The position numbers and the translations under genes are program-made. Under the pieces are notes generated by a model, which ran no database searches, was not told where the DNA came from, and saw only the letters and a list, made by a program, of their open reading frames with translations. A DNA stretch of 12,887 nt from Arcobacter sp. GTDB lineage: Bacteria > Campylobacterota > Campylobacteria > Campylobacterales > Arcobacteraceae. Numbering within the stretch: position 1 is the stretch's first letter; each line of letters starts with the position of its first letter. Positions 3-9,021 of this stretch are shown here, piece after piece. Location of the stretch: NCBI GenBank assembly GCA_965662175.1, contig CBFIGT010000043.1:1-12887 (forward strand), written 5' to 3'.

Positions 3-1703
3 ATTGGAACATTGGATGATAATTTTGTAGAAAAAGTATTTAATTTAATTTGTCAAAAATTTGATAATCAAGATTACTCATATGATTCAGAAGAATTTAT
101 TTCCACTTTAAATAAAATTCACAATAGCAGCTGTAACAATGTACCAGTTATCTCTAATCAAAATATTCTACACCCAGCAAACCATCCAATTGCTTATCCT
201 TTTTCTAATTTTCAAAACTATAATGCAGATAAAATATCAAATTCTCTTGTTAAAAGTAATACTAAGGCTATCAATAATTTTGATATTCTTCATAATCAGA
301 ATCAACAACTTATGCATCAAAAACAATATTATCATCAAGCCATTACAAATGATATGGATAGAAAAGTTTATGCTCATAATTTAACTATGATGCAATTAAG
401 ATTAAAGGGTTTTGATATATTTAAAGAACAAAACAATAAACTTTTTTATACACGTAGACCATTTGGAGAAAAACAAAAAACTACTATTAGCGAATTAAAA
501 GATATTTGTCATGGAATATTAGGTTATCACATTGGTATTTTCAATAATAGTGATGAAGTTTTAGTTATAGATGCAAATTATTTAATAGTTTCACTGTTAA
601 AAGCAGTTAGAAAAGAGATATTTAATCCTTTTTCAAACGAAGAATTCTTACATATTGGAAATAATCTTTGGGATAGAAATACTTTTGAGTACACTAAACA
701 TCTCAACAAAAGATTTGAACCTAAAACTTTTACACATGAAAAAACTTTTATAGAAACACTTCTAAGCGAAATACTTCCAATTCAAGAACAATCACAATTT
801 ATGATGAGCTGGTATTCTAAATATATGAGAGATGGTGTGAAATCTGATATTGTAATTATTTTAATTGGAGATAGCGAAACTACTGATATTTTATTAAATA
901 GTATCTATAAACCAATATTTGCAAAAAGAAAGAAATATATTAGTGTAATAGATGATGATGTTTTAACTAAAGAACCTAATAATGAGAATTTGTTAAATAA
1001 TAAAGTTTTATATCACATTGACAATCTAGGAGCTAAAACAGATAAAAGAAGAGTGAAAAGATTAGTTAGAACTATTGCTAGACCAAACTTTATAAACCCT
1101 ATTGAAGCATGGAACACAGATGAATCATATATTTATGGAAATTTGTTAATAACATCAAGTAAAGATACTCCATTTCCATATGTAGAGGATATTTTTAGTC
1201 AATGTGTCGTTTTTAGGGTTAGAGATATTAAAACTATACAAAATAAATTAAATGTAGACAGAAATCAATTAGACCAACTAATTGAAAATAATTTAGATAA
1301 ATTTTCAACAAAACTTTTACAACAAGATAATTATCATTTAACATTAATAAATACTGATGAAAAATGCTACTTAGAATCAATGAAAAATGGAGTACTTATA
1401 ACACCAGAAATTGATTGTAAAATTGATAATTATGTTAGTAATGTGATAGGTAAAAAAATTGAAGCATTTGAAGCTATAAAGTTTTATGATGAAACTATGT
1501 ATGATGAATTTTTAACAAATATTAATGAAGACATGATTGCGCAGCCATTGCAAAGTACATATTTCAATATAATCAATGGGGAAGAATTAATACCTCATAA
1601 TGGTGAATTTTTAGAGATATTAAAAAATAAAGCTGATATGTTTAAGGAAACACCAACAGATAAAAGTAAAGTAAATGGCAAAAAAAGATACCGAATCTTT
1701 TAA
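3..1703 (+). CDS. Mobile-element primase-helicase-like protein (SF3/D5/DUF5906-like C-terminal domain, NTPase motifs degenerate); 5'-partial
   Basis: The frame is open to the window edge (att gga aca ttg...), so the TTG at 12 is probably not the true start. Motif order resembles phage/satellite primase-helicases: FNP...NTF, then a hydrophobic strand with G at the Walker A position (IVIILIGDSETTD...IYKPIF), a Walker B-like strand (KVLYHIDN), a motif C-like strand (GNLLITSS) and a basic C-terminus (VNGKKRYRIF). Family assignment is by motif recognition only. Confidence 0.6.
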   Translation: MGTLDDNFVEKVFNLICQKFDNQDYSYDSEEFISTLNKIHNSSCNNVPVISNQNILHPANHPIAYPFSNFQNYNADKISNSLVKSNTKAINNFDILHNQNQQLMHQKQYYHQAITNDMDRKVYAHNLTMMQLRLKGFDIFKEQNNKLFYTRRPFGEKQKTTISELKDICHGILGYHIGIFNNSDEVLVIDANYLIVSLLKAVRKEIFNPFSNEEFLHIGNNLWDRNTFEYTKHLNKRFEPKTFTHEKTFIETLLSEILPIQEQSQFMMSWYSKYMRDGVKSDIVIILIGDSETTDILLNSIYKPIFAKRKKYISVIDDDVLTKEPNNENLLNNKVLYHIDNLGAKTDKRRVKRLVRTIARPNFINPIEAWNTDESYIYGNLLITSSKDTPFPYVEDIFSQCVVFRVRDIKTIQNKLNVDRNQLDQLIENNLDKFSTKLLQQDNYHLTLINTDEKCYLESMKNGVLITPEIDCKIDNYVSNVIGKKIEAFEAIKFYDETMYDEFLTNINEDMIAQPLQSTYFNIINGEELIPHNGEFLEILKNKADMFKETPTDKSKVNGKKRYRIF

Positions 1704-1927
1704 TAGTGTTTTTTTAATAAAAAAATCTATTTTTCTCAGTCGAATGAGGCTCTAGATACCTTAAAAATGGGCTTTCTGAAATAAATTTAAGATTCAGTTA
1801 AGAAATCATACTTTTTTTAGTGTTTACCGAGAAAAAAACGAGAAAATTAGCTTACCAAATAGTTGTCATAATGGTAATTGAGTCAAAGGCTAAAGCTTTA
1901 AAATAATGTTGGTTTTTGAATCTTTAC

Positions 1928-2012
1928 TGGTGTGGCTAGGGGGATTTGAACCCCCACAGCTTGCGCTATACGCCCCTCAAGCGTACGTGTCTACCAATTT
2001 CACCATAGCCAC
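1928..2012 (-). tRNA. tRNA-Leu (anticodon GAG), complete, CCA encoded
   Basis: Minus strand GTGGCTA-TG-GTGAAATTGGTAGACAC-G-TACGC-TTGAGGG-GCGTA-TAGCGCAAGCTGT-GGGGG-TTCAAAT-CCCCC-TAGCCAC-A-CCA. Perfect 7-bp acceptor stem, 5-bp anticodon and T stems, long variable arm with a GCAA loop, A73 discriminator; 85 nt. Confidence 0.97.
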
Positions 2013-2056
2013 AAAATAATAAAAATTCTAAAACGACCGATATGTGATAGATTGTT

Positions 2057-2094
2057 CCCTCAAGCCCACGTGTCTACCATTCCACCATATCCGC
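2057..2094 (-). pseudogene. 5' half of a second tRNA-Leu(GAG), truncated at the end of the anticodon loop (probable att junction)
   Basis: Minus strand GCGGATA-TG-GTGGAATGGTAGACAC-G-TGGGC-TTGAGGG, followed by non-tRNA sequence (AACAATCTATC...). The acceptor 5' strand, D arm, 5' anticodon strand and 7-nt loop are present. The complementary GCCCA, the T arm and TATCCGC are absent from the window. Confidence 0.9.
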
Positions 2095-2132
2095 ATATTT
2101 AAATTAAAACTATAATTTGTAAAAGAAATGGA

Positions 2133-2138
2133 ATTTTA
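2133..2138 (-). promoter_or_regulatory. Putative sigma70 -10 box (TAAAAT) for the tRNA-Leu locus
   Basis: Minus strand GTAAAATTCC about 40 nt upstream of the tRNA 5' half. The background is AT-rich, so the call is weak. Confidence 0.45.
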
Positions 2139-2243: not shown

Positions 2244-2492
2244 ATGAAAAAAATATTATTTTTTACACTTTTCAGTTTTATTGCTATACAAGCAGAAGAG
2301 CTTTTAACTGATTCTCAAAAAATGATGCAAGAGAGACAAAAGTTATATAATACTGAGAATATAGCTACTCAAACAAAAGAGCAAAAACAGCTGAAAAAAC
2401 AATATAAATATCAGTATAAAAAGGGTGAGGGCTCAAAAATGGGTTCAAGAAATATGTACAAAGGAAGCTATACAGGTGAAGTTAGACATTGA
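2244..2492 (+). CDS. Small secreted/periplasmic hypothetical protein (Q/K/Y/G-rich)
   Basis: AAAGGA RBS upstream; Sec-type signal peptide MKKILFFTLFSFIAIQA|EE; followed by a strong terminator. Confidence 0.8.
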   Translation: MKKILFFTLFSFIAIQAEELLTDSQKMMQERQKLYNTENIATQTKEQKQLKKQYKYQYKKGEGSKMGSRNMYKGSYTGEVRH

Positions 2493-2501
2493 TTTTTTAG
2501 C

Positions 2502-2540
2502 AAAAAAAAAGCTTCAAGAGAAAATCTCTTGAAGCTTTTT
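2502..2540. terminator. Bidirectional intrinsic terminator between the small ORF and atpE
   Basis: Perfect inverted repeat AAAAAGCTTCAAGAGA-aaa-TCTCTTGAAGCTTTTT (2506-2540), with A and T tracts on either side, between convergent genes. Confidence 0.92.
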
Positions 2541-2569: not shown

Positions 2570-2884
2570 TTACCCTAAAAATGGATTTGCATATAATGCA
2601 ATCATAGCAATAACAAGTGCATAAATAACTTGTGCTTCGATCATCGCTAATGCAATGAACATAGTTGTCATTAATTTTCCACCTAAACCTGGGTTTCTAG
2701 CAGTACCAGCGATTGTTGCAGCAGCAGTGTTACCCATACCGATAGCACCACCAAGTGCAGCTAAACCAAGACCAATACCAGCAGCTACTACAGAGTAAGC
2801 TTTTAAAGTTTCATTTGCAACTGCACCATCAGCAGCGAAAGCAGCACCAGCGATAGCTAGCATTAAAAGAACGATTTTTTTCAT
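2570..2884 (-). CDS. atpE: F0F1 ATP synthase subunit c
   Basis: Gly-rich first helix GIGLGLAALGGAIGMG, loop ARNP, conserved carboxylate in MIEAQVIY, AAGGA RBS 7 nt before ATG. The signal-peptide-like N-terminal extension is as known for Campylobacterota AtpE. Confidence 0.97.
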   Translation of the reverse strand: MKKIVLLMLAIAGAAFAADGAVANETLKAYSVVAAGIGLGLAALGGAIGMGNTAAATIAGTARNPGLGGKLMTTMFIALAMIEAQVIYALVIAMIALYANPFLG

Positions 2885-8244: not shown

Positions 8245-9021
8245 TTATTTTATATTAGTAATTAATTCTATTGGAAGGTGGTCACTGATATTTTTAGTAT
8301 AAAATTTGAAGTCTTTTGCCAAGTCTGTTCTTACTTTTGCAACTCCTTTTAGCTCTATTCCTATAAAATGGTCATAACTTTTACTTAAACCTTTTTTTCC
8401 TAAAGTGGTTTTTTCATCTATTAAAACTTCATAATTTTTTAGATTTTTCATAATATCTTTTTTTTCTAGATTAAAATCTCCTGCTATAATTATATTCTCT
8501 TTTTTGATTTTATATCTATTTTGGATTGATGCTACAATTTTAGCTAAGTTTTTTAACTCTTTAATCCTTTGGGCTTTTTTATTTCCATAAATTATATGAA
8601 TATTAACTATAGCAATCTTATCATCTAAAATTATAGCCATTGGAGGTCTTGCAAAATCTTTGTAGTTAAAGAACTCCACTTCTTTTATATTTTTATATTT
8701 TTTATTTATCAAAAAACCATATATCTCTTTATGGGTATCTCTACCTTTTTCTTTAGATGTAACTCTTTTAAAATCACTAAATAAAATCTCTTTTATTCCA
8801 CCTGATAAAAAATAGATGATTTGTCTATCTCTTAACTCTTGTAAACAAATTACATCAAAATCACTATTTGAAGATATATATTCATTTATTCTAGAGATAG
8901 ATTTTTTAAATAAAAGTGAATTTAGTGAAACATTCTTAAGGTTCCAACTTGCAACTTTTAACTCCTGTGAAAATAGAAATAATGGTAAAAATGCAAGTAA
9001 AAATAGTATCTTTTTAATCAA
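8245..9021 (-). CDS. Secreted endonuclease/exonuclease/phosphatase (EEP, DNase I-like) protein
   Basis: Signal peptide, then SWNLKN, CLQE, NIH, AGDFN, YDHF and SDHLPI catalytic motifs; TTG start with an AAGAGG RBS inside the end of nhaA. Confidence 0.88.
   Translation of the reverse strand: MIKKILFLLAFLPLFLFSQELKVASWNLKNVSLNSLLFKKSISRINEYISSNSDFDVICLQELRDRQIIYFLSGGIKEILFSDFKRVTSKEKGRDTHKEIYGFLINKKYKNIKEVEFFNYKDFARPPMAIILDDKIAIVNIHIIYGNKKAQRIKELKNLAKIVASIQNRYKIKKENIIIAGDFNLEKKDIMKNLKNYEVLIDEKTTLGKKGLSKSYDHFIGIELKGVAKVRTDLAKDFKFYTKNISDHLPIELITNIK

Follow-up and report, generated by a model that had tools for sequence, protein, structure and literature searches.

A mobile element that splits tRNA-Leu(GAG) and carries a substitute gene in Arcobacter, with signs of serial tRNA replacement in its family

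Known systems of tRNA-dependent integration

Integration that breaks a tRNA gene and brings a replacement is already known from actinophages, Pasteurellaceae ICEs, and Sinorhizobium prophages. The actinobacteriophages Fionnbharth, LeBron, and Gaia show tRNA-dependent lysogeny (Guerrero-Bustamante & Hatfull 2024, PMC10865867) and have in common with the Arcobacter element described here a tyrosine integrase, a core of 8 to 17 bp within a tRNA gene (8 bp in tRNA-Leu(CAA) for Gaia), attL and attR junctions that stay unrepaired, and an element-borne tRNA of matching isotype. The tRNA of Fionnbharth, however, overlaps with one of the phage's genes and is served by a promoter of its own, whereas the substitutes in this family lie 10 to 54 nt inside attL and are mostly without a -10 box; moreover, the actinophages are phages, while no phage structural gene was found among the ORFs scanned here. 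The accessible part of that account describes neither serial replacement nor fixation of the carried tRNA, and its authors left open how prevalent tRNA-dependent integration is outside actinophages.

The closest published geometry is that of ICEPmu1, ICEMh1, and their relatives in Pasteurellaceae, in which an intact tRNA-Leu at the element end replaces the disrupted gene (PMC6028734). Those are large conjugative elements of Gammaproteobacteria, whereas the elements considered here measure 10 to 47 kb where both ends are known. The present substitute is only 76% identical to the gene that it replaces; spacer length, promoter source, and copy divergence are not given in the part of PMC6028734 available. 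In Sinorhizobium meliloti, Lo5R7ANS-like prophages break tRNA-Leu(UAG) mid-gene and supply a foreign copy that is 80.6% identical, which the authors term diversification of tRNA genes (PMC11476347). That case comprises two prophages and one layer, and its accessible text describes no stacks, relic flanks, or family-wide turnover.

Canonical tRNA islands likewise have a tyrosine integrase, an anticodon-centred crossover (subsite A), and a displaced distal 3' fragment, but in these islands a fragment carried in attP restores the target (Islander, PMC4383910), which is not the case here. Because Islander, as far as its accessible text shows, rejects candidates of <2 kb and queries with the full gene, it could miss or mis-map such elements. 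Our literature search, in which subscription journals were thinly covered and supplements were not included, found no paper on break-and-replace in Campylobacterota or Flavobacteriaceae and none on serial replacement with fixation of the substitutes. The idea is less new than the initial annotation supposed, given the intact tRNA-Leu at the ends of the Pasteurellaceae ICEs (PMC6028734).

The split tRNA-Leu(GAG) and its substitute

The window is the 12,887-nt stretch at the start of contig C43 of an assembly of 249 contigs (2.6 Mb, 94% complete, 27.8% GC), and the far end of the element therefore lies outside it. Below, G000 is the present genome, other G numbers are other genomes, L numbers are loci or stretches, and X1 to X5 are metagenome runs; A, B, and C are our labels for three element end types that differ in spacer and arm repeats. 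Features of the window are listed in Table 1.

Table 1. Features of the element end and the adjoining host region in the window
Feature	Position	Strand	Evidence or remark
Gene of the element (563-566 aa) whose frame runs open into the contig edge; probably a DUF5906 primase-helicase	3..1703	+	Atlas features, lead only
Tandem TTTTCTCG(G/T) repeats; putative arm-type integrase sites	1826..1846	-	Repeat search of genome
Complete substitute tRNA-Leu(GAG), encoded CCA, element-borne	1928..2012	-	ARAGORN; fold
44-nt type-A element spacer, kept in sister elements	2013..2056	-	Contains nonconserved TAGAAT at 2025-2030
8-bp common core CTTGAGGG (tRNA positions 31-38); crossover region	2057..2064	-	Identical 8 bases at C68 9404-9411
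Orphan 5' half (tRNA positions 1-38) of broken tRNA-Leu(GAG); host side of attL	2057..2094	-	Partner on C68; joined form in X1, X2, X3
Probable relic of older type-B element spacer, directly 5' of broken gene	2095..2125	-	Flank comparison with shuffles
TATAGT, second 5/6 match to -10	2109..2114	-	Consensus match only
TAAAAT, likely host -10 box, 38 nt 5' of the half	2133..2138	-	Consensus match only
82-aa ORF, host side, found in empty-site contigs	2244..2492	+	ORF scan
Terminator-like hairpin, bidirectional, after atpE	2506..2540	.	Hairpin search
atpE (ATP synthase subunit c), synteny anchor	2570..2884	-	PF00137; 96-100% identical in same-genus loci

The initial annotation had described a tRNA 5' half that stops at the anticodon loop, a 44-nt gap, and then an intact tRNA with the same anticodon, and both the coordinates and ARAGORN agree with it. 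The 38-nt half ends with the loop TTGAGGG. Its missing 3' half was located by motif search at C68 9358-9410 (minus strand), adjoining an integrase ORF, and the two halves joined in silico give an 84-nt tRNA-Leu(GAG) with all stems paired (ARAGORN). This rebuilt gene is 75.6% identical to the substitute, and the stems of half and intact gene differ in the way first described. The substitute itself has a cloverleaf-like minimum-energy fold and is 91.8% identical to the substitute of G171. In a BLAST search of the 2.6-Mb genome (E <0.1), the sole self-independent match of the 38-mer was the D arm and loop of the substitute; given this result and the physical joining of the halves in three independent metagenome runs (see below), the half is not a chance resemblance.

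ARAGORN calls neither half, so that no functional tRNA is rebuilt at attL or attR. The core is followed by the 44-nt non-tRNA spacer, with no target-restoring tRNA fragment in the attP position, which agrees with the earlier proposal that the element does not rebuild the host gene. A candidate pairing between the spacer and the dead half was rejected (z = -0.03). The 82-aa ORF between atpE and the tRNA has a signal-peptide-like start and a Gln/Lys-rich body, and no homolog was found in the loci searched.

As anticipated, the substitute is the only Leu(GAG) among the 39 tRNAs called by ARAGORN in the 94% complete assembly. Since Leu(TAG), Ala, and Ile tRNAs are absent from the same calls, another Leu(GAG) gene may have escaped assembly. 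The cell might also do without the substitute in part if a Leu(TAG) tRNA can, through wobble, decode CUU; CUU and CUC account for 21.6% and 1.2% of Leu codons, respectively. Elsewhere in the genome, the minus strand at C100 ~8250-8330 holds a 3' end without an ARAGORN gene call, presumably a tmRNA-like 3' end.

The distal junction and the integrase

A matching 3' half and an integrase had been expected at the far end, and C68 holds both; attL and attR have only the 8-bp core CTTGAGGG in common. The tyrosine integrase looks intact (382 aa, C68 9487-10635) and ends just before the 3' half. Catalytic-type motifs were located in it, it matches PF00589 (above cut-off), PF22022, PF14659, and phrog_1 (E = 1.5e-38), and its best phage integrase matches are <30% identical. 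The TTTTCTCG(G/T) tandem occurs in the genome only at C43:1846 and C68:9470 and is also present at attR of G149 and G083; these tandems may be arm sites of the integrase, and TTTTCTCGG repeats are putative arm sites flanking the core.

Known element DNA amounts to ~2.06 kb from C43 plus 2.4 kb from C68, with the middle unassembled; neither a linking contig nor a contig-end overlap joins C43 to C68. Besides the integrase and the gene at 3..1703, this known DNA includes a conserved gene of 85 aa, an ORF of 144 aa, and, where the contig ends, a fragment of IS110. The 85-aa gene, which precedes the integrase and is kept in all members of the integrase clade, has only a weak HTH match. The gene at 3..1703 gave no Pfam, PHROG, or NCBIfam match, and its Atlas feature matches (0.97 to PF19263 clusters) are a lead. 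The integrase, the small gene before it, and the candidate primase-helicase (Atlas features) may point to a PICI-like or tycheposon-like satellite, for which an integrase, an excisionase-like gene, and a primase-helicase module would be expected. With the middle of the element missing, no phage structural gene was found among four element ORFs scanned against PHROGs, and no conjugation module (T4SS, relaxase, parA) was found in the known 4.5 kb or among the G149 Pfam matches. Viral contigs contained no integrase relative and no GAG double-pattern match, and no excised circle or attP was seen in the viral contigs or metagenome runs searched.

Between the 3' half and the rimK cluster, C68:4271-8907 carries an Na/Ca-exchanger-like gene, two histidine kinases, and a response regulator. 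These genes are absent at that place in same-genus genomes and are possibly leftover cargo of an older element.

The empty site

Each element end was compared with metagenome runs (X1 to X4 for one end; X1 to X3 and X5 for the other). In X1, X2, and X3, which come from three studies, one contig each matches the window from position 2057 upward (over 412, 357, and 150 nt, and with 1, 2, and 0 differences, respectively) and runs on into C68 (155, 56, and 1,210 record positions). The overlap of these contigs with the two references is exactly 8 nt, which shows that the gene is uninterrupted in near-identical strains and places the crossover inside the 8-bp core. The substitute is absent from the empty-site contigs at the junction. 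X4 and X5 yielded no near-identical junction contig, and neither the integrated form nor an attP junction was found in the five runs.

All seven same-genus genomes have one intact Leu(GAG) at this locus. The rimK cluster lies downstream, with atpE or its neighbours on the other side, in five of the six with listed genes (G045 has other genes), and the rimK-cluster genes of those five are found on C68 at 80 to 89% identity. The prediction that the empty site would hold an intact GCGGATA-type gene was correct for the X1 to X3 contigs; the same-genus genomes carry a third type.

As an alternative, the fragment might be what is left of a tandem paralog, or an old scar with no relation to the adjoining DNA. 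Partial tandem duplications with identical stems do exist: of 51 distinct chains from metagenomes that begin with a half, 9 are of this kind. Here, however, the exact 3' partner adjoins an integrase and the gene is uninterrupted in near-identical strains, which rules this alternative out for practical purposes and leaves it a negligible probability. The two junctions and their core are shown, as are the empty site and an integrase next to attR, and no Leu(GAG) other than the substitute was called; we regard integration without repair plus a carried substitute as practically certain.

Recurrence across the family

A pattern for the 5' half matches 168 of 183 relatives, 21 of which have two or three matches within 100 nt; G126, missed by the pattern, is a 22nd case of the layout. 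In a 3'-half search of 45 genomes, 11 of the 21 and G000 yielded an orphan 3' half able to pair with the 5' half; seven of these lie on the same contig and delimit elements of 9.9 to 42 kb. In 10 of the 21 the distal 3' half was not found, although the integrase of G180 was found by integrase search. The integrase ends just before the 3' half in all 12 cases (including G000), and these 12 attR integrases form one clade with support of 100/99 (19-row tree; long-branch warnings concern the outgroups). At a cut-off of E <=1e-60, 15 of 184 genomes hold this integrase, and 14 of them have the half-plus-substitute layout; the 15th integrase is 38% identical and lies at another tRNA cluster. Nine layout-positive genomes gave no integrase match at E <=1e-60, and the closed genome G039 yielded neither the clade integrase nor the 3' half with the queries used, which is what a locked-in relic should show. 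When five genomes were searched loosely for decayed 3' halves, the matches were at chance level.

The closest integrase, 84% identical, belongs to G083 in another genus, where the substitute is of a different type; the tRNA cassette is thus exchangeable. The sister type-A element in G149 is complete (16.4 kb), with matches to AbiE, type I R-M, HTH, AAA, and integrase, and 7 of its 16 scanned ORFs have no Pfam match.

Several loci are more complex. In G106 (L043:19050-19270), the last of three stacked units is damaged beyond the T arm, and the strict pattern found no intact Leu(GAG) in the genome, which is 99% complete. In G031 (L055, L215), a type-C-like substitute follows a 10-nt spacer at the left end, but the integrase and repeats at the right end found are of type B, and the two ends possibly represent two elements or a recombinant. 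In L353 and L364, a complete Leu(GAG) is preceded by three to four tandem repeats of a unit made up of an identical 5' half and a 50-nt spacer.

Transcription of the substitute

Across the family, 64 of 88 host-position units have a -10-like hexamer 6 to 30 nt upstream, where shuffles predict 44%; among substitutes the count is 2 of 23, where 22% is predicted. Since substitutes mostly come without a -10 box, read-through from the host promoter is favored as the design. In the window, TAAAAT is present where the initial annotation had placed a -10-like hexamer. It lies 38 nt upstream of the half, versus 7 to 29 nt in relatives, because the type-B spacer relic intervenes; such a layout would arise if the original 5' half had been deleted between two CTTTT runs. 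A sigma-70 consensus scan of the window returned no minus-strand promoter.

The present substitute is one of the two with a -10-like hexamer, a TAGAAT (5/6) 12 nt upstream. The same break-and-replace event might thus have delivered a tRNA with its own promoter in the 44-nt spacer, independent of the host promoter, and for Fionnbharth a tRNA promoter has been demonstrated (PMC10865867). However, TAGAAT is not kept in the sister type-A spacers of G171, G180, and G149 or in G083 and G106, the closest relative (L342) has GAGAAT at that position, and the 10-nt spacers in G015, G018, and G031 are too short for a promoter. We consider a spacer promoter unlikely and host read-through the probable mode for this copy. 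The earlier proposal of transcription from the host promoter is thus supported family-wide by the -10 counts but weakened for this copy by its own hexamer.

An older layer

The rebuilt gene is 95 to 96% identical to type-B substitutes in G008, G012, and G026, 81 to 82% identical to the gene of its own genus, and 98.8% identical to the lone gene of G002. We compared its flanks (45 nt upstream on C43 and 120 nt downstream on C68) with 41 loci, using 300 shuffles. Upstream and downstream z values against type B reached 7.8 and 6.7 (G150, G090) and 7.9 and 6.2 (G098), respectively, levels attained by 0 of 300 shuffles; upstream values were weaker for G008, G026, and G012 (2.2 to 3.6). Among the 41 loci, lone genes and other element types had z values of <=2.5, except for G047 downstream (3.6) and G117 upstream (3.8), and G117 has a type-B integrase. 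Replacement therefore looks serial, given the identity of the broken gene to type-B substitutes and the match of both flanks to type B.

In a best-of-set version of the flank test, the broken gene scored z values of 4.2 upstream (0/60) and 5.9 downstream. Values of >=4 were obtained for 4 of 11 substitute-type lone genes, 2 of 22 CGGGC-type genes, 0 of 9 other rare-type genes, and 0 of 23 common-type genes; the cut at 4 was chosen after the data were seen, and two common-type genes reached 3.2 and 3.5.

The initial annotation had treated the broken gene as the native host tRNA. On sequence grounds, it is instead very likely the substitute of an older element and not the ancestral host gene. 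The competing single-layer account, in which the broken gene is native and elements captured substitutes from hosts with such types, draws on the nearly identical G002 gene, which stands alone behind the atpE terminator without element flanks, on the 7 of 11 lone substitute-type genes without relic flanks, and on the unrooted direction of transfer. Both flanks of the broken gene nevertheless match type-B DNA in the two tests above, none of the 23 genes of the commonest host types reaches z = 4, and all seven same-genus genomes carry a different type, so that we regard a single layer as quite improbable.

In keeping with an older substitute at this site, units are also stacked three deep in G106, G150, L076, and L344. 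A hand tally of host-position stems in 168 genomes gave 96 common (CTAYC, CCATC, CTACT), 50 CGGGC, and 22 rare types, and 23 of 24 substitutes have rare stem types. In 53 genomes, among the matches listed, Leu(TAG) and Leu(TAA) have three stem types each, differing by 1 to 2 bases and with no close doubles, and Leu(GAG) has eight anticodon-stem types (hand count). These stem-type data are consistent with turnover but are not proof, as related genomes do not count as independent cases and no root fixes the direction of transfer.

A stricter rule, that substitutes are never of the common host types, was rejected: it holds in genomes (0 of 24) but is broken by 5 of 51 metagenome chains starting with a half, so that the avoidance is a bias. 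Two further loci show degenerate copies: G107 (L069) has a heavily decayed 5' half upstream of its lone gene, and in G046 (L033), 637 kb away from the main locus, there is a second Leu(GAG), which is degenerate and has a type-B-like spacer.

Other targets and lineages

G000 holds a second case at Leu(CAA) after fba, with the 5' half and substitute at C30:1614-1844 and the 3' half at C182:2478-2528 (L052, L209). Its core is 11 bp (GATTCAAAATC), HTH and replication-initiator-like genes follow, and G034 and G155, which represent two other genera, have nearly identical left ends. No integrase was found beside the 3' half on the short contig C182. Of 131 genomes searched, 77 gave some match and 9 have close Leu(CAA) doubles. 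An additional 117-aa ORF in this element end (L209:2662-3012) has weak HNH-type matches (Cas9, IscB, and retron HNH models), all below cut-off. In L319 (G014) and L320 (G044), ~13 kb from the left junction, the far Leu(CAA) end consists of a substitute-type 5' half fused to a 3' half, which in L320 is the host's; attP here looks built from an older junction.

A scan of all species, covering Leu tRNAs, returned at least 120 stretches. Among the 120 matches listed, 55 combine a half and a full tRNA with the same anticodon, 50 combine full tRNAs with different anticodons, and 15 are other arrangements. Ten Flavobacteriaceae genomes from the 55 were examined, and eight have an orphan 3' half 36 to 103 kb away that adjoins a Phage_integrase/Arm-DNA-bind_5 gene (split in one) pointing away from attR. 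Because this integrase is of another type and orientation, an independent origin in Flavobacteriaceae is suggested. Some of the remaining 45 half-plus-full stretches look like plain partial duplications. A search of L071-L190 with a nine-sequence integrase HMM was negative within 10 kb. Of the metagenome loci, 60 of 62 begin with a half, and the first and last stems differ in 42 of the 51 distinct chains of this kind. In viral contigs, the general pattern recovered ordinary tandem full tRNAs in 112 of 120 cases and a half plus a full tRNA in 3. Half-plus-full tRNA-Leu(TAA) pairs were noted in viral contigs L445, L479, and L503.

Proposed mechanism and implications

Our preferred reading, which we hold at a probability of about 0.85, is that an element entered the anticodon loop of Leu(GAG) through an 8-bp core and left both halves unrepaired, that it carries, 44 nt inside attL, a substitute likely expressed by read-through, and that the split gene was itself likely an older substitute from the same clade. 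In the mechanism that we propose, the tyrosine integrase would recombine attP (core plus flanking arm repeats) with the anticodon loop, and one transcript would run from the host promoter through the dead half and the spacer into the substitute. RNase P, which processes tRNA precursors, would cut out the 5' end of the substitute. Three layers may then be represented at this locus: a genus-type gene (not found), the type-B substitute that was split, and the type-A substitute that is intact. Since the substitute retains the anticodon loop, it would offer a new target for the next element, and once the halves decay or the scar is deleted, it would become the permanent gene of the cell.

Extending this mechanism beyond the present locus, we lean toward a tRNA ratchet, in which integrase clades in several phyla move promoterless tRNA-Leu cassettes that depend on the host promoter, and in which each substitute is the next target and is eventually fixed, so that single-copy core tRNAs are repeatedly overwritten. 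A single deletion between the two attP loop copies would turn the design into the canonical one.

Overall, the data would extend tRNA-dependent integration to about one in eight species of the family and to Flavobacteriaceae, and they point to a class of islands, some with defence genes, that tools based on a restored tRNA could miss. If the ratchet is true, it would provide a mechanism for the repeated swapping of a core translation gene by mobile elements and would account for eight stem types in Leu(GAG) versus three each in the untargeted Leu(TAG) and Leu(TAA). The decay of split halves would then lock the element end into the chromosome, and the tRNA sequences would record the traffic of mobile elements and not species descent.
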